Positions 28,439 through 45,895 of a DNA stretch of 64,000 bases are shown here, one piece after another. Origin of the DNA: an uncultured Gammaproteobacteria bacterium (GTDB lineage Bacteria > Patescibacteriota > Microgenomatia > Levybacterales > GWA1-39-11); the NCBI GenBank assembly GCA_964427615.1, contig CAYRUR010000001.1, positions 50,425 to 114,424 of the forward strand. The letters are read 5' to 3'. Each line of letters starts with the position of its first letter. Position 1 is the first letter of the stretch. The notes beneath the pieces were generated by a model. That model was not told the DNA's origin. It saw only the letters and a list, made by a program, of their open reading frames with translations, and did not search any database. The position numbers and the translations under genes are program-made.

Positions 28439-30127
28439 CTAGCCGCGGAGCACAGAAGGATTTTGAGACCACAAATCTTCTAAGTTAGTTGTATTATCAA
28501 CCTTTTCCGCAGGTTCTAACCGTGCAGAAATTGTAATTACTTTTTCTTTTGTTTCAGAAATATATTCCAGTGGTCTTTGAATCTGAGGAATAAGAATTTT
28601 GTCCCTAATTTTTAGGTTCGCACCAAGACCTGCAAATATTTCCCGTTTTGTTTGTCTGTCACCATTCTTAAACCAGTAACGGGCATAACATGCAAATTCA
28701 AACGTCTTTTCTGACAGCTCAACCCATTTACTAATTCTGTCTCCTGTATCTCCCAACTTTTCCTCAAGTCTTTGCTTTTCCCTCATCAATACCTCCTTTT
28801 GTGATCTAAATTCTTCATCACTGAGAAGGTTACCATTTGAATTGTGAGGAGATATCTTTAATTTAATAAGGTTATCAATACGCTTCGTAACATCACTGTA
28901 TGCCTCCTGTAACGCTCCTAGAGAAGCATTTCTGTCCTCAACCTCTCTATCATATAGCTCATTAATATACTTGATTGCCCAAGCCTTAAATTTCTCGGAT
29001 ATTTGAATGATAGAGAGTATCTCATCAATTTGTTTCTCAAGCTCTTCTTCTCGTATGCTACCTTGAGAACAATTAGAATCAACACGCTTTGTACAATGAT
29101 AATAAATATAATGAAGCAGGGTAGGATTATTCATCTCCTCAATTTTTACTTCACACTTAGGACAGACATCTTTATTTTGTGATGCAAATTTTTGCTTACA
29201 ATGAGGACAGATAATCTGGTACTTTTCTTCTGCGGTAATAGCAGCTCCACACTCACCACACTTCATAAGACCTCTATACAGAAATTCATAAGTTCTTGCT
29301 CTTGGACTTCCTTTTCTGCCAAGTAGCATTTGGACTCTCTGAAATTCTTCACGAGTAATCATTGGCTGATGTTTTCCTTTATGCCAAACTCCACTACCAA
29401 CGGGATATTCAAATTCCCCATAATAAAATGGATCAGTAAAAATTTTATAGATAAAACTTCTCGTCATTGGTTTTCCTCCTATACTTTTATGCTTGGGAGT
29501 TCTGTAGCCCATCTCGTCATTCAACATTCTAAGAATCTGAGGTGGAGTGTAGGTCCCCGTGAGCATCATATCCCATGCCTTCCTAATGAGAGGGAATCTC
29601 ACTGGATCAACTTTAATGGTCTTATTGCCTTTCTCAGCGTATTTATCATTCATATATCCAGGTTTTGCACCTGAAGGAAGCCATCCTTTTTCTGCTTTTT
29701 CCCGTAGTCCCCGCTTTACATTCTTTGAAAGATCATCAATAAACTTTTGAGCCATCCCAAATTCAACATACATCATAAATGAATTTTCACTTGCTTGATT
29801 GTACTCATTGGCAGGAGTACGCACCTCAATTCCTTTTTCTTTTATCATCCATATAACAGAACCTCCATCAACAGGATTCCTAGCCAAACGATCAACTTTC
29901 CAGCACAAAACGCCATCTATTCCCCCCTCGTACAAATAATTCATCATTTCGTTAAAAACGGGCCTTCCAGGGGCTTTTGCTGACCGTGACTCAGTATATA
30001 CCTTCACCACAGCGATATTGAGTCTTTTAGCCAACTCTTGAAGTTCTTTTATCTGAGAATCAATGGAGAGAACTTGTCTATCCTCTGACTCAGAGCTCTT
30101 TCTTGCATAAATGACATACTTTTTCAT
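28439..30127 (-). CDS. Large serine recombinase (integrase) with intact catalytic, recombinase and zinc-ribbon domains
   Basis: N-terminal resolvase domain [19 protein letters not shown]...[16 protein letters not shown], a recombinase domain, and zinc ribbon CGECGAA...CPHCKQKF...CPKCEVK with coiled coil. The 3' end overlaps the tRNA 3' exon by 12 nt. Confidence 0.85.
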
Positions 30128-32071: not shown

Positions 32072-33541
32072 TTGACAACTCTTTATCACTGGATTAATAT
32101 AGAGCTGATGGATAATCAAACTCACGAAAAAGTATATACTTACCTTCGGAATCAACTTGCACAGGCTGAAAAAAGACTTCAGGCATACACTGTAGATAGA
32201 GAAGGAAAACCATATTTGAAGCGAAGTGCAGCACTTGTACTTGAAAAGTATGTAAAAAACTTTTCTCAGAGTGGAAAGGAACCAAGATGGGTTGCTGTTC
32301 CAGGATTAAGAGGAGTGGGTAAAACCACATTGCTAGCACAAATATATACAGAATTAAGTTGTCCTCCTGGATATAAACTATATATTTCGCTAGATGAGGC
32401 GAGTCGTGTCCTTGGTGTAAGCTTAACAGACATACTTACAGTACACGAGGAATTGTTAGGAAAGCTCTATGAAGAACTTGATAAACCAGTATTCCTGTTT
32501 ATTGACGAAGTTCAATACGAAAAAAATTGGGGATTAGTTCTGAAGAGTATATATGACAGAAGTAAAAAAATATTTATCTTCTGTACAGGATCATCTGCTG
32601 TATCTTTACAAACAAACCCAGACGTATCAAGAAGAATTGTATTTGAAAAACTTTACCCACTTTCCTTTGTTGAATACATGCTTCTTAAACATCGTAAAAA
32701 GCCTATTACTGGCCTTGGAAAACAATTAAGAGACGCGCTAATTGCATCTTCTAGTGGAGAGGAAGTATATAAAAGACTTCTTAACTATCAGAATGATGTT
32801 AATAAGTACTGGATAGGAGTAGGAAGACTTGAAATTCAAAAGTACTTCAAATACGGCTCATTACCTTTTACCTTTCAGTTTACACAGGAACCCTTGATAT
32901 ACCAACAAATTGAACAGACCTTAACCAATATTCTTAACAAAGATATTCCTCAGTTAAGTAAATTTGAATCTGACACAATCACAAAAATGTATCAAATTCT
33001 TTACACAATCTCTGGTTCAAGTGTAACAAGCCTAAACTCCTTATCAAAAACTTTTAAAATATCAATTGTAACAATGGCAGAAATACTTGAGGTTTTTGAG
33101 AAATCAGAGATGTTACTTAGAATATACCCAAATGGATCACATTTTGGGCAAGTAAAAAAACCTTCAAAATATCTTTTTATCTCACCAGCATATAGGAGTA
33201 TGTTTTTCAACCTTATAGGTAGCACTTTTTCATACGATAATTACAAAGGGTTTCTTTTGGAAGATGTCGTTGGATTGTATCTCTATCGCACTTTGGGTTT
33301 AAGGTTTGGAACAAGCCTTACTTATGATAGTGCAGAGGGAGGAGCAGATTTTATTATAAGCTTTGATGATAAAAAAATAGTAGCTGAGATAGGTTATGGA
33401 AAAAAGGACTTTCAACAAGTAAAGACAACAATGAAGAGAGTTGGGGGTACATATGGCTTATCAATCTCTTCAACCCGACTTGCATTTGATAAAGACCAGA
33501 ATGTAATCTCAGTACCACTTGGCTACTTTTTACTAATATAA
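32072..33541 (+). CDS. AAA+ superfamily ATPase of the COG1373 / AAA_14-DUF4143 type
   Basis: Walker A VPGLRGVGKTTLL, Walker B FLFIDEVQY, and a C-terminal DUF4143-like region. 489 aa. Confidence 0.65.
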   Translation: MTTLYHWINIELMDNQTHEKVYTYLRNQLAQAEKRLQAYTVDREGKPYLKRSAALVLEKYVKNFSQSGKEPRWVAVPGLRGVGKTTLLAQIYTELSCPPGYKLYISLDEASRVLGVSLTDILTVHEELLGKLYEELDKPVFLFIDEVQYEKNWGLVLKSIYDRSKKIFIFCTGSSAVSLQTNPDVSRRIVFEKLYPLSFVEYMLLKHRKKPITGLGKQLRDALIASSSGEEVYKRLLNYQNDVNKYWIGVGRLEIQKYFKYGSLPFTFQFTQEPLIYQQIEQTLTNILNKDIPQLSKFESDTITKMYQILYTISGSSVTSLNSLSKTFKISIVTMAEILEVFEKSEMLLRIYPNGSHFGQVKKPSKYLFISPAYRSMFFNLIGSTFSYDNYKGFLLEDVVGLYLYRTLGLRFGTSLTYDSAEGGADFIISFDDKKIVAEIGYGKKDFQQVKTTMKRVGGTYGLSISSTRLAFDKDQNVISVPLGYFLLI

Positions 33542-33705
33542 CTAATCTTATGCAATAAGTTGGAGATTAATTTCATATCCTAACTCTGCTACTATTTTTA
33601 TGGGTCACACGTTTGTTCATTGCATGCTTCTGAGAACTAAGAAGAAATAATGAGCTATTTAAGAGCAGAGAAATGGAATTAAAGTAATCATAAGGTTATT
33701 TTGTT

Positions 33706-34659
33706 TTGAATAATTCTACTTGTAGAGGATATTCCTTCATGCCAAGACATAACAAAAAACATCACAAAATCCCAAAAACATATCTTGAAAGATTCACTGA
33801 TTCTGAAGGGTTTGTATGGATTGCAGATAGAAATCTCAATCTCTATCCCCAGAAACCAATAAACACTCTTACTGAAAATGATTATTACACAATACGGTTT
33901 AGAACAGGCGGTGGAACCCTTAATGTTGAAACAAAATTTTTAGGAGGAATAGAGACAAGATATTCAAAAATATATAAGCAAAAACTTGAAGGACAACAGC
34001 CCATATCTCAAGAGGACAAAGCAAAACTTTCAATATTTGTTGCCTCTATGTTGGAACGTCAACCAATGACACGACAGTCTCTTGAGAAGTTTTTCTCAGA
34101 AATTGAAGAACATATAACTCACATGAGAGGTTTACCAGACCATGTTAAGGAAAAAATGGCATCGGTTCCCGTGCTCTCTGGAAGTGGTCCATCATTCTCT
34201 GCGGATGAATTACTTGAAGCTGGGAAAGATGTCAGTTCACTTCACTCATCTCTTATACCCGACACTGTTGTTGATATTGCACCTATCATTTTTGATATGA
34301 AATGGGCATTTATGGTAAAACCAGAAAAATCAGAGCCTTTTATAACTTCCGATAATCCTTGTGTAATGGTTGACCCAGTGGGAGAAGCAGAATTCGGAAG
34401 GGGAACGTTTGGCGCAGCTCCAGGGTTTGTAAAAAAACATATAGAACTTACTCTGCCATTATCCAAGAATATGGCTCTCTTATGTGGATGGAAACTGGAG
34501 CATGACTGTTTTTACATAACAGTACCAGAAGGGCAGGTCAAAAACATAAATTTAAGGACAAAACGACACGCAGATTATGTTATTGGACACGATAAGAAAA
34601 TGCTCGAAGAAATGATAGAGAGAGTGAAAGCTTTTGAGAGAAAAACAGGCTCAAAATGA
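33706..34659 (+). CDS. DUF4238-like protein (a family reported as an antiphage gene)
   Basis: N-terminal NKKHHKIPKTYLERF resembles the conserved HH.P..YL..F start of DUF4238. 317 aa. The probable true start is the MPRHNKK ATG at 33739. Confidence 0.45.
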   Translation: MNNSTCRGYSFMPRHNKKHHKIPKTYLERFTDSEGFVWIADRNLNLYPQKPINTLTENDYYTIRFRTGGGTLNVETKFLGGIETRYSKIYKQKLEGQQPISQEDKAKLSIFVASMLERQPMTRQSLEKFFSEIEEHITHMRGLPDHVKEKMASVPVLSGSGPSFSADELLEAGKDVSSLHSSLIPDTVVDIAPIIFDMKWAFMVKPEKSEPFITSDNPCVMVDPVGEAEFGRGTFGAAPGFVKKHIELTLPLSKNMALLCGWKLEHDCFYITVPEGQVKNINLRTKRHADYVIGHDKKMLEEMIERVKAFERKTGSK

Positions 34660-35464: not shown

Positions 35465-36816
35465 GAAACAGACAAATAATAGGTTCTGATTGAGTCCATC
35501 AGGCGGAGCCAGAGTTCTCTTATCCGAACCAAGTCCATGTCTATGCAGGCTTGGAAGGCTTCGGTATAAGTGATATCAATGATTTTTTTGTTCTTAATCC
35601 AGATTTTTTGGATAAACCACTTCAGGAATTGTTTCCTCTCATTTTTGGTAAACGATTTATACAGTGCTGGTAAATCTTTTAGGGTGTTTATAATGGTATC
35701 TATCTTTTGCTCGTCTAAATTAGCGGATGGCCTTTTCAGTTTAGCAATTTTACCTTCAACTGCTTTCAGCTCTTCTCGTAATGGCACATATTTTGGTTCA
35801 ATTCGTTCTTTAGGAACCAGTTCTGATATTAACTGATCCTCCAGCTTATCCTTTTTCTTTTCGATAATTCTTTTACGATCTTCCAAGGCTTTAATTTGAC
35901 CTTGAATATCTTTACCTTGGGATCTCATGACATCCTCAAGCTCTGTCCGCAAAGCTCGTAAGAATCGTTCTCCAAATTTAATACCAGCAATATGGTCTTC
36001 GAGTTGTTTATGAACATCTTCCATGGGAGCATAAGGTTGAGTACATTTTATCTTTCTGTTTTTTGGCCCCATACATCGGTAATAACGGATTATTAACCCA
36101 CTTGGTTTTTTGTGCTCCTCACCGCTCATTAAAGTAGTGCATTCTTTACAAAAGACCATACCAGCCAGGAAAAAATTATGTTTTCTGGTTCTATCAGCGC
36201 CTTTATTGTGTTCTGCAAGCATAGCTTTTGCCTTATTTATATCATCCATCTCTACTACTTTAGGGTGGTGCCCTGGGTAAACCTTGCCCAAATATAAAAC
36301 TTTCCCTGCATATCTGACATCAGTAAGGATCGTATGAATTAAGCTATGACTTACTCTTTTACCATTAGGAGAGCGGAATCCTTCTTGATATAATTCTTCC
36401 TCTAACGTATAGACCGAAGGTGAAAGCCGGTTGTTAAACCTTCTAAAAATCTCTTTGATAAAATACTCTCGCTCCTTGTCAATTTTCCAGGGTACGCCTT
36501 TTTGAAATGAGTTAATATAGCCAATTCGTGCTTGTCCTGGTTGGAATCCTTTTTCAGCAAGAGCGATCATGGTACGCCTTGTTTTCTCACCAGTTATTTC
36601 TCGTTGGAGTTGATTAGCACCAGCCATCACCAAATCAACAAATTTTCCTACTGGATCATCTCCAAAGTTTGGTTGTTGCGTAGCAATAAGCTCGATATTA
36701 TGTTTTTTGAGAAGTGCTTTAACAGCTAAGTGATCTTGAGCATTTCTGGCAAACCGATCTGTTTCTTCCAGGAGAACGATATTTACATCCTTATCTGTAG
36801 GATATAATCGGGTTGT
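35461..36816 (-). pseudogene. 5'-truncated large serine recombinase that has lost its N-terminal catalytic region
   Basis: The ORF track shows a recombinase domain plus zinc ribbon from MVMAGANQ onwards. Manual upstream translation in the same frame gives TDKDVNIVLLEETDRFARNAQDHLAVKALLKKHNIELIATQQ (the C-terminal half of the resolvase catalytic domain; compare VDRLARN in the intact copy). The frame then hits a stop at 36817-36819 with no Ser-containing YxRxS motif upstream. An IS481-type transposase gene follows. Confidence 0.7.
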
Positions 36817-36835: not shown

Positions 36836-37650
36836 AGACCTATCACAATTCATAAGAATACTCGATTAACCCCACATTTGCGAAAGGAGATATTTGAAAA
36901 GTATCATGTAGAGCGGATACGAGTAACTGAACTGGCTCGGCTGTATCATGTTTCACGAGTAACGATTTACAAAGTTTTGAAACGAGCTCGTCAGCAAGAG
37001 CTGTACCAACGCTCAAGTACTAATCTGCGTTATCGTAGTCTGGAGTATGGACTCAAGCGCTTAGCCAAGATCGAACAAAAACTTGAAGAAAAGCTAAAAA
37101 CACAGGCCAAACGTTATAACAAAGCCTATCCTGGTGAGATGCTCCATGTGGATACTTGTTCTCTGCCTCATCTACGGGGTGAGTCTCGTTTTACGCCTCA
37201 GGAATGTTTGCATATAGCCATTGATGATTTCTCTCGAGAGCTCTATGCAGCTATTCTGCCTGATAAAACAAGTGCTTCTAGTGCTTTGTTTTTAAAACAA
37301 GTTCTTGCTGAGTGTCCTTACACCATTGAACAAGTATACTCAGATAACGGGGTTGAATACAAAGGAAATCCTGATAAGCATGCATTTATGCAAGCTTGTG
37401 CAGAGCATGGCATTACCCAACGGTTTACCAGAGTCAGGACACCACGCACGAATGGAAAAGCAGAACGAGTGATCAGAACTATCTTTCAGATGTGGCATGA
37501 TAAGCATGAATTTACCAGTCGAGCTCAGCGGAAAGTGCTGTTAGTGCGTTTTGTCAATTATTGCAACACAGTTTGGGTTAAATCTTGTTGGATACGCAAC
37601 TGACGGATTCTATTTGCTAATTTTTTATCCTCTCGTTTTAACCTCCTCCT
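36836..37650 (+). mobile_element. IS481-family insertion sequence (boundaries approximate)
   Basis: Transposase ORF flanked on the left by the broken recombinase frame. Terminal inverted repeats could not be defined confidently by eye. Confidence 0.4.
36878..37603 (+). CDS. IS481-family DDE transposase (HTH plus rve integrase-core domain)
   Basis: N-terminal HTH RVTELARLYHVSRVTIYKVLKR, DDE core with HVDT..., SDNGVEY and TNGKAERVIRT. The apparent start is TTG at 36878; the frame is open from 36836. Confidence 0.8.
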   Translation: MRKEIFEKYHVERIRVTELARLYHVSRVTIYKVLKRARQQELYQRSSTNLRYRSLEYGLKRLAKIEQKLEEKLKTQAKRYNKAYPGEMLHVDTCSLPHLRGESRFTPQECLHIAIDDFSRELYAAILPDKTSASSALFLKQVLAECPYTIEQVYSDNGVEYKGNPDKHAFMQACAEHGITQRFTRVRTPRTNGKAERVIRTIFQMWHDKHEFTSRAQRKVLLVRFVNYCNTVWVKSCWIRN

Positions 37651-38010: not shown

Positions 38011-39732
38011 ATGTCACAACCAACAGAGCCCCATATAGAAGATAATGTTAGAGGACTGGATCAGCGTGCCGAAAAACAACTTGTAAGACGAGAAATTTCT
38101 GAAGGTGTTAGTGAGTATTTTGATACTAAAGCAGAAGCTCGCACAGCAGCAGAGCATACACGAGGTGCTATTGGTCAGGATTTAAGATATGCCGAGGGAT
38201 TAAGAGATACGGGTGGGTCTACTGCTGAAACGGGCATCAGACGAATTAAGGATATTGCAGATCAGGTTGATACAGATACAGCAGCGTTTGAAGCAAAAGC
38301 AGATCGGTTGAGTTCTCCATACGTTATTTCTCCCCAGTTAGCAAAAGAACATAAAGTTGCAAGATTTCTTAAAAAACCACATTTACTTGAAGGTGAACCT
38401 GGAACAGGGAAAACCTCGCTTGCTTACGCCGTTGCAGGTGACGAAGGTTTGCCCTTAATTCATTGCCGAGGGAAAAGTACGCTAACTGCTCAATCAGTTA
38501 TGTATGAGGTAGATTATGTTGGGAGATTAAATGATGCCATGCTTGCACAAAATATCCCCGATGTATTACGAGGACAGACACAACAATGGGTCAAGTATTT
38601 AGAGTCTGGTGGGGATCCTAATGCAGCAGAATTCCAAAGTTTTATGGTTGGTTTTGAACACTCAGCAAAGTTATTAAATTTAGAAAAAGTATCAGATGTT
38701 AGAAGATACTTAAAATACGGTGAATTAGGAGAGGCTATTATCAGAGGAGCACAGGGTGAAAAAGTAGTTTTACTCTTTGATGAAATTGATAAGGCAAAGC
38801 GAGAATTCCCCAATGATTTACTTGATGAATTAGAACATCTAACTATACGAATCAGAGAAACAGGTGAGGAAATAAGCGCACCGAGAGAAAATGTTTTTGT
38901 TCTAATCACCTCAAATCATGAACGAGACTTACCAGAACCATTTTTAAGAAGATGCGTTTATAGTTATATAGATTTTCCTGATGCTGAACAAATGACAGAA
39001 ATTGTGAGGGCACATACTCCGGATATCAATGAGAGACTTCTTGAGAGCGCTGCAAGAAGATTTTACGAGATACGAGGACGAGCTGACTTACAGAAAAAAC
39101 CGTCTACATCAGAAATGTTAGATTGGGTACGAGTTCTCCAAGAGTTTGGAGTGGAAGAAGTAACTGACGAGACCCCATTTGCTGAAACACTACTTAAATA
39201 TAAGGAGGATCAAGATAAGTTAGGTGTCAGAGGGCGAAGAGAAGAAAAACTAATACAATCTGGTTTACCAGAATCAGTTGTCGCAGCACTCAATGGGGAT
39301 AAAGTAGTTCGCTTAAGAGCTGCCTCGTATTATGACCGAAATCCAAGCCCACAAGCATTAGTAAAATTAGCAAACGCTGGGTATCGGTTTACAACCGCAA
39401 AATCTGAAGACAGAAATGGCAGACCGTTTAATATACACGCCGATAATGTAAGACGAGTTGATGACTTAACATTTACTATTCTACCTTACGAAAAAACCAA
39501 GGATGGTACTATTACAAGCCCAAGTGATTTATACGAAATTTTAGAAGGAGCAGAAGCTATTGAATCAACAATGGAAGTGACAGATACACCAATAGAACTT
39601 GCTTCTATAGAAGATGGCAATGAGTATTTTATAAAAGGCAAAGATGCCCAAGGAAGAACAGTCTATCGAATGTCAGATGGGCGATTTGTCTACGAACAAC
39701 AAGTAGGGCAACATGCCAGCGAAAACTATTAA
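38011..39732 (+). CDS. MoxR-like (AAA_5) AAA+ ATPase with N- and C-terminal extensions
   Basis: Walker A LLEGEPGTGKTSLAYAVA, Walker B VVLLFDEIDKA, sensor region VFVLITSNHERDLPEPFLRRC. About 200 aa of unrecognised C-terminal sequence. Confidence 0.75.
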   Translation: MSQPTEPHIEDNVRGLDQRAEKQLVRREISEGVSEYFDTKAEARTAAEHTRGAIGQDLRYAEGLRDTGGSTAETGIRRIKDIADQVDTDTAAFEAKADRLSSPYVISPQLAKEHKVARFLKKPHLLEGEPGTGKTSLAYAVAGDEGLPLIHCRGKSTLTAQSVMYEVDYVGRLNDAMLAQNIPDVLRGQTQQWVKYLESGGDPNAAEFQSFMVGFEHSAKLLNLEKVSDVRRYLKYGELGEAIIRGAQGEKVVLLFDEIDKAKREFPNDLLDELEHLTIRIRETGEEISAPRENVFVLITSNHERDLPEPFLRRCVYSYIDFPDAEQMTEIVRAHTPDINERLLESAARRFYEIRGRADLQKKPSTSEMLDWVRVLQEFGVEEVTDETPFAETLLKYKEDQDKLGVRGRREEKLIQSGLPESVVAALNGDKVVRLRAASYYDRNPSPQALVKLANAGYRFTTAKSEDRNGRPFNIHADNVRRVDDLTFTILPYEKTKDGTITSPSDLYEILEGAEAIESTMEVTDTPIELASIEDGNEYFIKGKDAQGRTVYRMSDGRFVYEQQVGQHASENY

Positions 39733-39735
39733 CTT

Positions 39736-41307
39736 ATGTATGAAGGCGCAGAAACAAGTCCACAACCGCAACCACCTCATATCCCAGAACTATCTTCCCA
39801 GCAAGAAGGCGGACATGATTTCCAATATGACCCCGAAGCCCAAAGTATTCTTGTCCGTTCTGTAGATAGGTCAGGGACAATTAAGGAACAAAAACATCCC
39901 TTTCAAGAACTTCTTTACTCTCTGCGAAATGAAGGTGTTCAAGCTACAACTAGCGAATGGCTTGATCTTCAACGTTGTTTAGCAGAAGGCCAAGTACAAA
40001 GTCTTGATGACTTATATGTCATTGCCCGGAGCTTGCTGGTAAAAGATGTCTCAGGATTTCCATCATTTGATACTGTGTTCGGAAGAGTTTTTTATGGCGT
40101 TGAACCACCAAAGCCAAAAAATGAAGATGAATGGAGTGATGAATATGAAGAACCAGAAGAAGAGCCTCAACAAGAACGAGATCAAGATGAGGCAGAAGAT
40201 GAAGCCACAGAAGAACCTATTCAAAAGGAAAAAGAAGATATAGAAGAAGTGGTAGAAGCAACTACAAAAACTTCGGAAGATGTTCATGGTGGTGATGAGG
40301 CGACCAAAGACATAGAAGATTCTCCAAATGCTGCAAATGAAGGCAAGCAACTTGATAACCATGGTGCTGAAAAAGGAAAGAGTAAAGAAAATCAAAAGAA
40401 AAAAGGCGAAGGTGGAGGCCAACAGCAACAAAATGCTCAGGGTGGAGGTAATCAACAAGAAAAAGGACAAGGAGGCGGTGACAAAAATACTGAAGGAGAA
40501 GGTGGCGATGGTGAAAAAGAAAATGATGCCGGTGGAGGTAAAAGGTTAGAAAAAGCAGAAGGTGTAGTAAAGGAAGGAAAAGGTGGGTTTTCTGCTCGTG
40601 AACGAGTCATGGAGCGAAGGTATGATGGCTATGACAAAGACAAGATCTTAGGATATGAACAATTTAGCCAAGTTCTTGCAAAACTTACTACTATTATGCG
40701 TGATGCAACTACAATTAGGACATCACGATTAGATCAGCTTGCTACTGCTCGGAGTATTGCACAGCATGGCGGCGTACCAGAATTTGTTTGGGAAGAAGAA
40801 GCAGAGGAAAAGCCAAAAGTTGTTGTATTATTTGACGTTGGAGGAAGTACTGATGAATTCCGTCCTATTATGGAAAAACTTTTCGCCGCTGCAAAAGATA
40901 CTATTGATGAACTTGATGTTTATTATTTTCATAATGCTATCTACGGCGATGTTTGGCCACAGAAAGATGGTAACTGGGGGGAGCACTTTATTCCAATGCG
41001 AGAAATACTAAAAAGAGATGAAAACACCAGGGTTATAATTGTAGGTGATGCTTGGATGGCAGAAGGTGAGCTACATGGTGGAGGTTCTTATTATGATGAA
41101 CAAGAAAGTTCAGAAACCGGATACGATAACTTCAGAAAAATACAACGAACATTTCCTCATACTGTCTGGGTAAATCCGATTTTAGAAAGAGATCATGAGC
41201 AATGGGATAATTCAGGAACAATTGCAGACATTAAAGGTATTTTCCCAATGTATGATTTAACTCTACGAGGTTTAGAAAATGCAGTTAGACGTTTAATGGA
41301 AGAATAA
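39736..41307 (+). CDS. vWA-domain protein (partner of the MoxR ATPase) with a long acidic/Gly-rich disordered linker
   Basis: C-terminal VVVLFDVGGSTDEF (MIDAS-like DxGxS/T) ... IIVGDAWM. The central ~170 aa is E/D/K/G/Q low complexity (EDEWSDEYEEPEEEPQQ...GGGQQQQNAQGGGNQQEKGQGGG). Confidence 0.65.
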   Translation: MYEGAETSPQPQPPHIPELSSQQEGGHDFQYDPEAQSILVRSVDRSGTIKEQKHPFQELLYSLRNEGVQATTSEWLDLQRCLAEGQVQSLDDLYVIARSLLVKDVSGFPSFDTVFGRVFYGVEPPKPKNEDEWSDEYEEPEEEPQQERDQDEAEDEATEEPIQKEKEDIEEVVEATTKTSEDVHGGDEATKDIEDSPNAANEGKQLDNHGAEKGKSKENQKKKGEGGGQQQQNAQGGGNQQEKGQGGGDKNTEGEGGDGEKENDAGGGKRLEKAEGVVKEGKGGFSARERVMERRYDGYDKDKILGYEQFSQVLAKLTTIMRDATTIRTSRLDQLATARSIAQHGGVPEFVWEEEAEEKPKVVVLFDVGGSTDEFRPIMEKLFAAAKDTIDELDVYYFHNAIYGDVWPQKDGNWGEHFIPMREILKRDENTRVIIVGDAWMAEGELHGGGSYYDEQESSETGYDNFRKIQRTFPHTVWVNPILERDHEQWDNSGTIADIKGIFPMYDLTLRGLENAVRRLMEE

Positions 41308-41318
41308 TCCCTCAGCTT

Positions 41319-41546
41319 TTATAAAGCTATTGCAGGAGCTTGAGAACTCTCTGTTTTTGCCCTATAATCGCTTATGGTACGGATAATATCCCAGAGGGGG
41401 AGCCATAGTTGATTATCATTGTACGATAATATCGTATCAAATGGTTTTTGAGCTTGAAATTGCACGTTTTTACCCTCTAATTTCAGGTTCTGAAGTGTAA
41501 GCCTTATTAACTGCCGTCTTTCTTCAACTTCTGAACTTTCAAACAA
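41319..41546 (-). CDS. Small hypothetical protein, last gene of the minus-strand four-gene cluster
   Basis: 75 aa ORF with no motif. Confidence 0.3.
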   Translation of the reverse strand: MFESSEVEERRQLIRLTLQNLKLEGKNVQFQAQKPFDTILSYNDNQLWLPLWDIIRTISDYRAKTESSQAPAIAL

Positions 41547-41652
41547 TTCATACGCTTTATTTGCCAGTTCTAGTAGGTATTTAGCCGTGATGTAGTAGTT
41601 ATCCTCTGCTTCCTGTAATAATGCCAGTATGGTATCTATATCCGCAATCTGT

Positions 41653-42129
41653 TCACAGAACGACTGATAAATCTGTCATGGTCGCTTTCAGTAATACACC
41701 TGTAGCTATATCATATTGGGGTGTTTGCATGCCCTTTATTATGTTTAGCTGTTGTTCCAGTATCTGTATTTGAAGCTCCGTCATATACGCCTCACATTCT
41801 TCTTTTTGTCTTTCCCAGTCTGATTTTTTGATAGTTACAGGCGGGTCATATCTTTCAAAATTAACTAAATCAACTTCAGGTGGTTCGTATATCGGTAGCT
41901 CTGGCATTTTGATAGTCTGCAAAATGTCTAAAGCAGGAAACTTGTAAGCTGTGATCGTCTTCAAAACTTCTGCCATGTTTGAGTTTGCTATCTCGGCTAA
42001 AGTAGTCCCTAGTTTGGTAAATTGCTCATGATTTGCTTCTACAATCGGTTTTAATGCTTCTGCTCGTTCTTCAACAGACATCTTATCCAAATCGTAGAGA
42101 GTTACTTTTTTATCAGATAATTTCGGCAT
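41653..42129 (-). CDS. Hypothetical protein, third gene of the minus-strand cluster
   Basis: 158 aa, acidic, with coiled-coil-like segments. No motif recognised. Confidence 0.4.
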   Translation of the reverse strand: MPKLSDKKVTLYDLDKMSVEERAEALKPIVEANHEQFTKLGTTLAEIANSNMAEVLKTITAYKFPALDILQTIKMPELPIYEPPEVDLVNFERYDPPVTIKKSDWERQKEECEAYMTELQIQILEQQLNIIKGMQTPQYDIATGVLLKATMTDLSVVL

Positions 42130-42155
42130 ATGTCATTACATCTTCAAAAAACGGT

Positions 42156-43154
42156 CTATAAAAACCGTTCAGTTATGGGCAATAAATGTTTTCGTATTGG
42201 CACTGGAAACATGTGTAAAAACTTATTCCACTTTTCAACTTTGTTTTCTGGAAACTCTGCAAACATCGGGTCTTTTTGAAGCATTTTCTGTTCATATGGT
42301 AATAAGCGACACAGTCTAAATGGTATTTTGCCTTGAGCTATTTCTTCTTTCGTCCAATTATCTTTTACTCCAATTGCCCCAGTACCCTTACGCACCATTA
42401 CAATCACTTTCTCATCGGGGTCTTTACTAAAATCAGGGTGTACATCAATGACTTCAGCCTTGTCGTAGGTCGCTTTGTATATTTTTACCAATCGTGTCAT
42501 TACTTCAAAGTATGCAAGGGTCTTATTTACAAGCTTCATTACATCGTCTGTTTTATACACCTTAGTAGGACTAGGAATACGTACCTCATCATCATATAAA
42601 CAGTAATCAGAGTGAAAAACTGCGTTTCTCAAGTCTTTATCAAAAATACTTACTAATGGCTCAATGTTTTTTTCCAAACCTTGGATTTTTGCCATTTCCT
42701 TTATTTTGTTTAACTTTTCAGAAGCGAACATTGGTCTAGTCTTGCCACTTTTCCCGAGCTTTATATCTGGAAAGCAAAACGCAGAGTATCTGTTGCCCGA
42801 AATAACCCTCAGTAAATTACACAGCAAGTCGTATGGATAAGCGGCTTCTAATATTAAGCCGTAGAGGACAAGGAATAAATGCAACTGCTCGGTGTTGTAG
42901 CAAACTTTGTACTTCAGCTTATTAAAGGTTTCAAAAATATCTTGAGTTGTTTCAAATGCGTCCCAACCCGCATCATGCATTCCCTTTATATTTATTAGTG
43001 TGCAAATAAACTCAAAATCGGATTGTTCCTGTGCCTTGGCAAAGAGCGGGTCTAAAGCATTGAAGTAATCAACCAAAGCTTGTGCGTATGTGGGGTTAGT
43101 GTCCTTTGGAACATTGTGTGCTATCCATAATCCATTTTCGTCTCGTTTTATCAT
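42156..43154 (-). CDS. Hypothetical protein with a HEPN-like Rx4H motif
   Basis: 332 aa. Contains DLRNAVFHSDY (R-x4-H) in a predicted helical context. Separated from the upstream TIGR02391-like gene by 4 nt. Confidence 0.45.
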   Translation of the reverse strand: MIKRDENGLWIAHNVPKDTNPTYAQALVDYFNALDPLFAKAQEQSDFEFICTLINIKGMHDAGWDAFETTQDIFETFNKLKYKVCYNTEQLHLFLVLYGLILEAAYPYDLLCNLLRVISGNRYSAFCFPDIKLGKSGKTRPMFASEKLNKIKEMAKIQGLEKNIEPLVSIFDKDLRNAVFHSDYCLYDDEVRIPSPTKVYKTDDVMKLVNKTLAYFEVMTRLVKIYKATYDKAEVIDVHPDFSKDPDEKVIVMVRKGTGAIGVKDNWTKEEIAQGKIPFRLCRLLPYEQKMLQKDPMFAEFPENKVEKWNKFLHMFPVPIRKHLLPITERFL

Positions 43155-43157
43155 AGG

Positions 43158-43931
43158 TCATATAGTAGTTTTTATTTCTGCTTGGTCTAATAGGTTCATA
43201 GCAAGGCTACTTAAAGATAGGTATTCGTAGGCTCTTTGAGGGTCATCTATCTTTGCGTCAGAAGTGTGGCTTTTTTCGTTTCTGAACATATCAATAGCCA
43301 TTGTTAAAAACTTTACTCCTTCATTGAAGTCATGGTCTACATTACTGGCAACAGCACCTTTAATATGTAACTTAGTGTTTCCAAAAGCCTTAGAGCCTGT
43401 TTCATATCCCGTCAAATCTCTTAATCTATCTCTAACAATCTTAAATCCTTTTTCTACAGCCTCTGGGTATTCTGCTTTTTCAAATAAGCTCTGGCATTTT
43501 GCAAAAATCTCTGGGTGTAAAACAGAAAGGTCGTGTTTTAATTGCGAAACAATTTTTTTAGGAGTTTTACCCATAAACTCTTGATACTCTGGCTCATTTT
43601 GTATTTTCAGAAAGTAATCATCAAAAGCAGGTAACAACTCAATATGATAAGAACCATCGTCTGGCTCGTTCAATCCATACATAGCTCCAGCTTCTCTTAT
43701 GCGATTTCCTACTTTAAGAGTGATAATCACTTTTTCTTCCTGCTCTAGCTTTGCAAATAGTAGGCTAAGTTCATCGCCTTTATATTTATTATTGAGGTTC
43801 CGTGTGGCGTGTATTTTCAAAGATTGTCCCGATGGTGTAATTTCTCTTACATCCTCAAGCCTATTTAGTAAAAAATAAAGTTTCTGCTTGCCGTTCATCA
43901 TATAGTCATTACATTTTCGTAAAATGAGCAA
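43158..43931 (-). CDS. Protein with a C-terminal TIGR02391/Abi_C-like (HEPN-superfamily) domain
   Basis: C-terminal AVEKGFKIVRDRLRDLTGYETGSKAFG...LHIKGA...NEGVKFLTMAIDMFRNEKSHT (R-x4-H) resembles the TIGR02391/Abi_C consensus AV.KAF..VE.RLRELSG...KAFG...FRNP.AH. An alternative start is ATG 43901. Confidence 0.55.
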   Translation of the reverse strand: MLILRKCNDYMMNGKQKLYFLLNRLEDVREITPSGQSLKIHATRNLNNKYKGDELSLLFAKLEQEEKVIITLKVGNRIREAGAMYGLNEPDDGSYHIELLPAFDDYFLKIQNEPEYQEFMGKTPKKIVSQLKHDLSVLHPEIFAKCQSLFEKAEYPEAVEKGFKIVRDRLRDLTGYETGSKAFGNTKLHIKGAVASNVDHDFNEGVKFLTMAIDMFRNEKSHTSDAKIDDPQRAYEYLSLSSLAMNLLDQAEIKTTI

Positions 43932-44118
43932 GCTCTATTTTATCATTGTTTAGCAATAAGTAGGAGTATTAAGTGTAAGCGGATTGGATTTCAAAAGTTT
44001 CAAAGACCGTTTTTATGTTCTGTAAGCTAAACCCGAACTCTATTTCTCGGTTACGGAACACATCAGCTAGTGGAGCCAAATAGAACAAACTACATTTTAT
44101 TCATGATATACTTTAGGT

Positions 44119-45342: not shown

Positions 45343-45607
45343 TAATTTTATTTACTTTTTGATGAGTTTTAGACATTCTAATTAAGTATCCTTGAATAAA
45401 GACTGCTTCTTTACAAAACTATAAAAACGATATTTACTCTTTAATTGAAAAAGGCACATAAATAACTGTTTCGGTAAGATGTAACAATCACACCCAATAA
45501 TTCTCCTTTTAAGACAAAATTTCCTTACTTTTTTATTTCACGAGTTATACATGATGTTTAAGAGCACGACGTATAAACGGTGCCATAAAAAGGGAGGTGA
45601 TAAACAC

Positions 45608-45895
45608 ATGCGTATTTTAAGTATAAAAAAGGTCATTCTCTCCGTTGCAGTAGCGGTAGTAGCACTTAGTTCTTTGTTTATGACACCATCAGCGTTTGCT
45701 GGTTACGACTATGGAAATAACTGGAATTGGAATCGCTACGATAACTATAACCACTACGGACGCGATAGAGATGATTGCTACAGAAATAACCGATATGACT
45801 ATTACCGCAATAGAGATCGGTTCTCCAGAGTTTACTATAAAGCCGTTTACAGTTCCTTTTATGGAAATAACGGCTACGGGTACTGGGGGTACTGA
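45608..45895 (+). CDS. Small secreted Tyr/Asn/Arg/Asp-rich low-complexity protein
   Basis: Signal peptide MRILSIKKVILSVAVAVVALSSLFMTPSAFA, then YDYGNNWNWNRYDNYNHYGRDRDDCYRNNRYDYYRNRDR...GNNGYGYWGY. The longer ORF starts at 45551. Confidence 0.5.
   Translation: MRILSIKKVILSVAVAVVALSSLFMTPSAFAGYDYGNNWNWNRYDNYNHYGRDRDDCYRNNRYDYYRNRDRFSRVYYKAVYSSFYGNNGYGYWGY

Follow-up and report, generated by a model that had tools for sequence, protein, structure and literature searches.

The locus and its four open reading frames

Four minus-strand open reading frames (ORFs; hereinafter genes 1 to 4) follow one another closely in a 64,000-nt stretch of a Patescibacteria genome (contig CAYRUR010000001.1; hereinafter the window, whose numbering is used for all coordinates). 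The ORF listing places them at 43931-43158, 43154-42156, 42129-41653 and 41546-41319, where an earlier reading of the letters alone (the original prediction) had found them, and separates them by 3 nt, 26 nt and 106 nt; the last two spacers are as predicted, and the first is 3 nt rather than 4 nt. The original prediction took the four ORFs for an abortive-infection (Abi) or toxin operon in which two small acidic proteins accompany two HEPN toxins as antitoxins or regulators. Only genes 1 and 2, however, are intact genes, and the four-gene operon is not confirmed because ORF 4 is the tail of a recombinase pseudogene and ORF 3 a truncated gene, the two having been brought together by a deletion. 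The earlier observations on the sequence are largely accurate; the novel four-gene Abi/toxin-antitoxin module with acidic antitoxins built on them is not supported. The features of the locus are collected in Table 1, and in what follows L-numbers denote related loci, P-numbers protein records and A3 the family alignment of gene 1.

Table 1 Features of the locus and of the adjoining DNA in window coordinates
Feature	Coordinates	Strand	Description
Gene 1	43158..43901	-	247 aa; winged-helix N-terminal (model) and Ymh HEPN C-terminal domain; maximal ORF extends to TTG 43931
Gene 1 N-terminal domain	43572..43901	-	~residues 1-110; winged-helix fold (model)
Gene 1 C-terminal HEPN domain (Ymh / TIGR02391)	43176..43520	-	RNEKSH at 43266-43283
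Gene 2	42156..43154	-	332 aa, uncharacterised; ~235-residue helical core (model), invariant RNxxxH, then alpha/beta C-terminal region
Gene 3	41653..42129	-	Truncated element-backbone gene; residues 1-146 match a 237-aa protein
Deletion junction	41690..41700	.	11-nt overlap of two homology blocks; ~4.47 kb missing (blastn)
Large serine recombinase C-terminal remnant	41388..41675	-	Pseudogene (tblastn); ORF 4 (41319-41546) is its in-frame tail
Conserved ~75-nt piece	43981..44052	-	Non-coding-looking, with stem-loop; edge of cargo region in related elements
AAA+ ATPase and CoxE-like vWA pair	38011-41307	+	AAA/AAA_5 matches; weak sub-threshold NCBIfam MadB match

Gene 1 combines a predicted winged helix with a Ymh HEPN domain

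Gene 1 probably begins at ATG 43901 and not at TTG 43931, because an identical 247-aa product is on record (P0191) and every homolog starts at the same MMNGKQK. Residues 138-252 match TIGR02391 at 76.3 bits (cut-off 39.45) in the NCBIfam profile scan and PF09509 (Hypoth_Ymh) at 57.6 bits (cut-off 25) in the Pfam scan. The earlier assignment of the gene 1 C-terminus to TIGR02391 is thereby upheld, together with the intact Rx4H; the companion label Abi_C (PF14355) is not, as the Pfam scan at E <= 1 gives no match to it and returns PF09509 only. The motif RNEKSH is translated at 43283-43266. Among 32 homologs, the N, E, K and H of FRNEKSH are invariant and the R is conserved in at least 90%, being replaced by K in one, and the upstream Ex3[KR] motif (EAVEKGFK) has invariant E147 and K151. 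The AlphaFold2 (AF2) model of gene 1 (predicted local distance difference test, pLDDT, 82.7) suggests an alpha-helical HEPN fold for the C-terminal domain and a winged helix for the N-terminal domain, which had been described as unrecognised. Profiles and model together indicate that gene 1 is a winged-helix-HEPN(Ymh) fusion.

Ymh (PF09509) is counted among the HEPN families that retain the Rx4-6H motif (Anantharaman et al. 2013, PMC3710099), to which a metal-independent endoRNase catalytic role has been assigned; its members are solos or fusions to paraMORC, AbiJ-NTD1/2 or AbiTii, often in restriction-modification (R-M) neighbourhoods (PMC3710099). Gene 1 resembles this family in exceeding both profile cut-offs, in keeping Rx4H and Ex3K, in its modelled HEPN fold, in its variable N-terminus and in its location in mobile, R-M-rich DNA. 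It differs in that its N-terminus is modelled as a winged helix, as opposed to the paraMORC, AbiJ-NTD1/2 and AbiTii of the 2013 list, and a winged-helix fusion of Ymh is not among the Ymh fusions listed previously. From the motif only, we infer that gene 1 would encode a metal-independent endoribonuclease; no experimental work on any Ymh protein was found in the literature searched.

The Ymh HEPN domain is ~75-80% identical even between proteins with unrelated N-terminal domains (A3; 43176-43520 and P0250-P0309), and this bears on an alternative in which gene 1 serves the element chiefly as a transcription factor, its winged helix binding DNA and its HEPN domain sensing a ligand or RNA so as to control the downstream cargo gene. 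Such a role would suit the winged-helix fold and the position of gene 1 as the first gene after an upstream region that is 82% identical to that of the closest related locus, L005, a level above that of coding DNA; non-catalytic HEPN regulators such as MtlR also exist (PMC3710099). The catalytic Rx4H and Ex3K are nevertheless nearly invariant and the HEPN domain stays constant across unrelated N-terminal domains, which argues for a conserved enzymatic function of gene 1 and makes a purely regulatory one quite improbable.

The constancy of the Ymh HEPN domain spans phyla (Patescibacteria, Elusimicrobia and others), a pace of evolution unusually slow for a presumed toxin domain; it points to a target under tight constraint or to domains being shuffled often through horizontal transfer. 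In gene 1 variants that are 362-364 aa long (L066; P0215, P0222, P0233, P0240 and P0244), the winged helix is separated from the HEPN domain by an inserted stretch of ~110 residues that resembles, by eye, a second copy of the N-terminal domain; in L066, a gene-2 ortholog lies next downstream of this variant. A scan of IMG/VR with gene 1 returned one distant match.

Gene 2 belongs to a widely scattered and strongly constrained family

The second R-x4-H noted in the original prediction is the RNAVFH of gene 2, translated at 42629-42612. A single Rx4H appears in 22% of gene 2 shuffles and in 22-28% across the gene 1/gene 2 shuffles; a lone Rx4H is thus weak evidence, and the weight of the motif must rest on its conservation in homologs. 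The corresponding rates for RNx3H are 1.2% in gene 2 shuffles and 1.2-1.5% across both genes. R-[polar]-x3-H is kept by 131 of 132 full-length members of the gene-2 family. E103, Y108, R176, N177, F180 and H181 are invariant across 29 homologs. A more diverse set of 41 homologs (21-51% identity) shows no substitution at Y98 or E103 and conservation of at least 90% at R176, N177 and H181, and in the phage and plasmid homologs (22-25% identity) the invariant residues are F38, W64, L95, Y98, E103, R176, N177, H181, D183 and R192.

The family forms 44 clusters when grouped at 90% identity, and at 50% identity it has 481 representatives (E <= 1e-3). Compared with its L005 ortholog, to which it is 92% identical, gene 2 shows a ratio of nonsynonymous to synonymous substitution rates (dN/dS) of 0.028 at dS 1.49. 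Wherever dS is measurable, dN/dS is 0.03-0.1, and genes 1 and 2 are both under strong purifying selection.

The AF2 model of gene 2 (pLDDT 90.6; predicted template modelling score, pTM, 0.88) places the motif at the end of a short helix in a helical core, followed by a beta-hairpin, a long helix and the alpha/beta C-terminal region. In a Foldseek search of this model against the PDB the best E is 0.19, and the predicted structural similarity to HEPN is marginal. Gene 2 itself has no match in Pfam, NCBIfam, PADLOC or PHROGs and none among PDB sequences in sequence and profile searches, and a scan of IMG/VR with gene 2 found no relatives. The R-x4-H noted earlier in this gene is conserved; no HEPN or Abi profile matches the gene. 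We therefore treat gene 2 as HEPN-like by motif and as no more than a candidate HEPN protein by fold; what can be said firmly is that it represents an unannotated, widely scattered protein family that is strongly constrained and mobile.

Genes 3 and 4 are debris of a 4.47-kb deletion

The two small ORFs are acidic, as originally described, with isoelectric points (pI) of 4.68 for ORF 3 and 5.28 for ORF 4; the role of antitoxins or regulators proposed for them did not survive comparison with related loci. ORF 3 is 59% identical to residues 1-145 of L005 4348-5061 and 57% identical to the 237-aa protein of L049, and its last 12 codons are recombinase DNA read out of frame; its 158-aa product forms a singleton cluster unique to this genome. 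ORF 4 (75 aa) shares 74% identity with recombinase residues 436-488, and in tblastn the recombinase homology (residues 393-488 at 78% identity) runs upstream past the TTG start of ORF 4 and nearly to the junction. By eye, it can be followed in another frame over the short remaining distance to the junction, so that the recombinase remnant contains at least one frameshift.

In blastn, the window from 44107 to 41690 is collinear with L005 2332-4785, and the window from 41700 to 41396 matches L005 9253-9558. The two homology blocks overlap by 11 nt at the junction, and 4,467 bp are therefore missing relative to L005. As this mapping shows, a deletion has brought the interior of the 237-aa gene up against the final ~95 codons of the recombinase gene. 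Because genes 3 and 4 meet at this deletion, the small acidic ORFs proposed as antitoxins are debris, and a role as antitoxins is ruled out for what is a truncated backbone gene and a recombinase pseudogene. Gene 3 is not tied to gene 2 either, since full-length gene 3 also lies downstream of an unrelated 282-aa protein in L049. In PADLOC, ORF 4 has no match at E <= 1 and ORF 3 one insignificant match (BnzB, 13 bits). The small conserved partner beside the toxin that marks type II toxin-antitoxin systems is likewise missing, no partner recurring around gene 2 in 37 loci.

Four ORFs tightly packed on one strand, two of them (ORFs 3 and 4) with an acidic pI, are what a four-gene Abi or toxin operon, with the small proteins as antitoxins or regulators of two HEPN toxins, would be expected to display. 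Against it, ORF 4 is a recombinase fragment whose homology reaches back past its own start codon, ORF 3 is a cut-short backbone gene that runs out into recombinase DNA in the wrong frame, and the ORF 3 product is confined to this genome; the junction mapping already refutes such an operon, to which we assign next to no probability. When co-conservation of the four genes was checked, only the adjacency of genes 1 and 2 recurred, in four related elements. For annotation, the case illustrates that tight ORF packing and short motifs can make deletion debris mimic a toxin-antitoxin operon.

Related elements carry a swappable cargo slot and a large serine recombinase

In L005, the order of genes is Ymh, gene 2, the 237-aa gene, small ORFs, a SpoVG-like gene, a 379-aa gene, an HTH_17 gene, a methyltransferase and a large serine recombinase, the last of which carries an N-terminal resolvase-type catalytic region. 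The intact relatives L005, L006, L001, L004 and L009 have at their end a recombinase that combines resolvase, recombinase and zinc-ribbon domains, and they also have an excisionase-like helix-turn-helix (HTH) protein. The window keeps recombinase residues 393-488 only, and the other backbone genes are absent from it. The mobile or accessory setting that had been suspected is supported, and takes the form of an integrative element with a serine recombinase. Additional cargo in related elements includes type I or Eco57I-like R-M genes and Fic, and the occupants of the cargo slot across elements are Ymh, gene 2, a protein with two transmembrane (TM) helices, a DUF5677 protein and a PD-(D/E)xK-like 280-aa protein. 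No phage structural proteins were detected in the related elements. A recognisable prophage was considered and rejected, the PHROGs matches being excisionase-like proteins only.

The ~75-nt piece upstream of gene 1 recurs in L001-3, L048-50, L053, L054 and L056, with sites at L005 2372-2466, L048 4987-5045, L049 5134-5193 and L001 9004-9075 as well as in L053, L054 and L056. Its stem-loop is CCGAGAAATAGAGTTCGG, and it is 76-86% conserved, above the adjacent coding DNA. It has no match in Rfam, and no tRNA is present in the window. The piece could mark an element end or attachment (att)-proximal site, have a regulatory role, or be a very small ORF or the remains of a gene. On its opposite strand, the variation looks partly synonymous (MFCKLNPNSISR versus MFCRLNPNSASR).

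From L005, L006 and L049, we propose that the ancestral element would have been an integrative element of ~8-10 kb, driven by a large serine recombinase in a genome of Patescibacteria (candidate phyla radiation, CPR). Its intact layout would begin with the ~75-nt piece, the variable cargo slot, the 237-aa backbone protein and the small ORFs, and would continue with the SpoVG-like protein, a ~380-aa protein, the excisionase-like HTH, methyltransferase or R-M cargo and the serine recombinase. The 4.47-kb deletion has left the element no longer mobile, with genes 3 and 4 as its debris.

A conserved backbone with a slot of swapped genes likens these elements to the P2/P4 hotspots (bioRxiv 10.1101/2021.01.21.427644) and to Tn7-like cargo (PMC8649781). 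They differ from both in that the carrier here is a Patescibacteria serine-recombinase element, in the window a deletion remnant, and that the cargo consists of candidate defence genes. For CPR biology, what emerges from the comparison is a family of small Patescibacteria elements that have a serine recombinase and a cargo slot whose contents can be swapped. The mobile elements and defences of Patescibacteria are poorly known.

The pairing of genes 1 and 2 is recurrent and not obligate

The pairing was examined from both sides. The gene-1 context sample comprised ~14 distinct Ymh genes that share the N-terminal domain of gene 1 and whose downstream DNA could be read, and the gene-2 context sample 37 non-redundant loci from metagenomes and from genomes of Patescibacteria, Actinomycetota, Acidobacteriota, Planctomycetota, Pseudomonadota and other phyla. 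Gene 2 follows a gene 1-type Ymh in four independent Patescibacteria elements (window/L047, L005, L006 = L055, and L066), at gaps of 3, 3, 9 and 4 nt, respectively. In two other elements Ymh is followed by a 282-aa two-TM protein and in others by four different singletons; ~5 of the ~14 Ymh genes have a convergent gene or nothing downstream. Seen from gene 2, a Ymh gene stands ahead in the window, L005 and L006 only, leaving 34 of 37 loci without Ymh. L001, L004 and L012, whose gene-2 relatives are 73-76% identical, have a divergent 268-280-aa gene in place of Ymh.

Clustering of the two neighbours on either side of gene 2 revealed no recurrent neighbour in the 37 loci save in small groups of closely related elements. 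Among 126 flanking proteins (bulk Pfam and PADLOC), Eco29kI endonucleases, DNA methyltransferases, resolvases and a PD-T4-6-like kinase are scattered among heme and purine genes. In L023 and L024, gene 2 lies, by reading of the sequences, between HemN-like and protoporphyrinogen-oxidase-like genes of a heme-biosynthesis cluster, and the families Radical_SAM, HemN_C and Amino_oxidase appear in the scan of gene-2 neighbours. Microcystis phage Mwe-Yong1 carries a distant homolog in a moron-like position on the opposite strand, between tail genes and a Dam methylase (L132, MZ436628.1 15529-16479). On Agrobacterium plasmid pAt2 the homolog adjoins a KAP NTPase and a TIR protein (L133, NZ_CP048588.1 11696-12712), on plasmid pAtG3_79a it is near HipA and NT-HEPN genes, and in L011 (2151-6838) it directly follows a KAP NTPase beside a type I R-M system; pAt2 and L011 are unrelated replicons. 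As the neighbours of each gene vary in the two samples, the pairing of genes 1 and 2 recurs within one element clade and is not obligate either way.

In L048 (6760-7608) and L049 (6766-7614), the slot after Ymh holds the 282-aa protein, with two N-terminal TM helices, in place of gene 2. A divergent relationship of this protein to gene 2 was considered and rejected, as it shows no similarity and has two TM helices. The pairing of Ymh with a membrane protein might represent a different effector arrangement.

These data bear directly on whether genes 1 and 2 form a true two-component system, with Ymh as the RNase effector and the gene in the next slot as sensor, regulator, immunity protein or second effector. 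The short same-strand gaps in four distinct elements, matched by gaps of 6-21 nt for the alternative 282-aa partner, and the purifying selection on both genes are consistent with such a system, for which a precedent is to be found in the type IX retron, whose HEPN nuclease is kept in check by a winged-helix protein (bioRxiv 10.64898/2026.07.14.738597). Yet most gene-2 loci, including the 73-76% relatives and the housekeeping contexts, manage without Ymh, about five of the Ymh genes with this N-terminal domain lack a downstream gene on their own strand, and the occupants of the slot are mutually unrelated. We consider a true two-component system unlikely.

Function of genes 1 and 2 and comparison with known systems

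On balance, we favour an account in which the locus is the surviving front of a broken serine-recombinase element, with two autonomous RNase-type conflict or exclusion genes stacked in it as cargo. The uncertainty in this picture is nearly all about function, not anatomy. Gene 1 would act as a metal-independent endoRNase whose activity is probably gated by nucleic-acid binding through the winged helix, and gene 2 would probably be a second, independent HEPN-like conflict gene of the RNase type; both would serve as stand-alone abortive-infection, exclusion or addiction genes and not as parts of an obligate two- or four-component system. Selection on genes 1 and 2 would have persisted after the loss of the recombinase, which fits a benefit to the host, through exclusion of phages or rival elements, or addiction.

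Several results weigh against this account. None of the HEPN Pfam families is matched by 41 diverse members of the gene-2 family, and when the gene-2 family is compared with the Ymh alignment in hhalign, the probability is 0.1%. In PADLOC-DB v2 neither gene 1 nor gene 2 has a match at E <= 1. A functional link between the two genes would also be in keeping with their gap of 3-9 nt in four independent elements. Gene 2 may accordingly not be a HEPN RNase at all: its conserved E/R/N/H/D/R could serve another chemistry or binding, perhaps unrelated to defence, an alternative that the failed profile comparisons favour and the family-wide R-[polar]-x3-H disfavours, and that we judge somewhat unlikely. 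This alternative and the two-component system overlap in part with the favoured account and with each other. A more ambitious proposal is that gene 2 founds a new widespread HEPN-like RNase family (~480 clusters at 50% identity in many bacterial phyla, a cyanophage and plasmids, neither modelled in Pfam nor closely matched by a PDB structure) that works as an autonomous single-gene exclusion or defence module and that in Patescibacteria is recurrently coupled with the winged-helix-Ymh protein as a dual-RNase cassette in the slot of serine-recombinase elements; we hold this as a tentative possibility.

Comparison with characterised systems sets gene 2 apart. It has no profile match to AbiD/F, AbiJ, AbiU2, AbiV, ApeA or HEPN-MNT toxins (PDB 8xdj, 7ae2). 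Unlike HEPN-MNT pairs, it lacks an MNT-type or other constant partner, and unlike single-protein HEPN Abi genes and minimal HEPN toxins, it is predicted to have an extra alpha/beta C-terminus of ~100 residues and a beta-hairpin after the motif. A precedent for the gating proposed for gene 1 is the type IX retron (Retron-Kva2), in which a separate winged-helix protein and multicopy single-stranded DNA (msDNA) enclose the HEPN active site until phage attack (bioRxiv 10.64898/2026.07.14.738597). Both combine a winged-helix module with a HEPN RNase, and the retron is an abortive-infection system in which a winged helix gates a HEPN active site; the retron, however, uses separate proteins that need reverse transcriptase and msDNA, whereas gene 1 would fuse both modules in one chain. 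Neither a reverse transcriptase nor a non-coding RNA was found near genes 1 and 2 by profile scans and Rfam.

The predicted winged-helix-Ymh architecture of gene 1 makes it a simple candidate for a nucleic-acid-gated HEPN RNase, and the gene-2 family, with its catalytic-looking R-N-x3-H/E/D/R constellation, deserves a Pfam entry. HEPN RNases are already well established as cargo of mobile elements, and the locus leaves current concepts unchanged.

Wider setting in the window

Three serine recombinases lie in the window. The one at 28439-30127 is intact; the one at ~35737-36795 is truncated at its N-terminus, is without its first ~67 codons and abuts an insertion sequence (IS; rve, 36878-37603); the third is the remnant at 41388-41675. 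Since these recombinases are at varied stages of decay, the 28-46 kb interval looks like a pile-up of integrative elements, and the region is a patchwork of such elements, not one designed block.

The original prediction had joined the convergent AAA/vWA pair to the four ORFs as a defence-island-like block. The pair falls outside the gene 1-gene 2 element, because it lies between two decayed recombinases, beyond the remnant; its neighbours are the IS and the truncated recombinase. Its vWA protein contains an acidic, Gly- and Lys-rich low-complexity linker of ~170 residues, and a literature search on the NCBIfam names of the pair, MadB and MadC, returned unrelated papers only.

The plus strand at 32072-34659, immediately upstream of the truncated recombinase, encodes an AAA_14/DUF4143-type ATPase and a DUF4238 protein (Pfam labels taken from Logan contig L047, which is identical); these add to the accessory genes of the same island. 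On the other side of genes 1 and 2, a small plus-strand ORF at 45551-45895 has a signal-peptide-like N-terminus followed by a low-complexity region extremely rich in Tyr, Asn, Arg and Asp (GYDYGNNWNWNRYDNYNHYGRDRDD); it is overlapped by long ORFs in other frames and is a putative gene.

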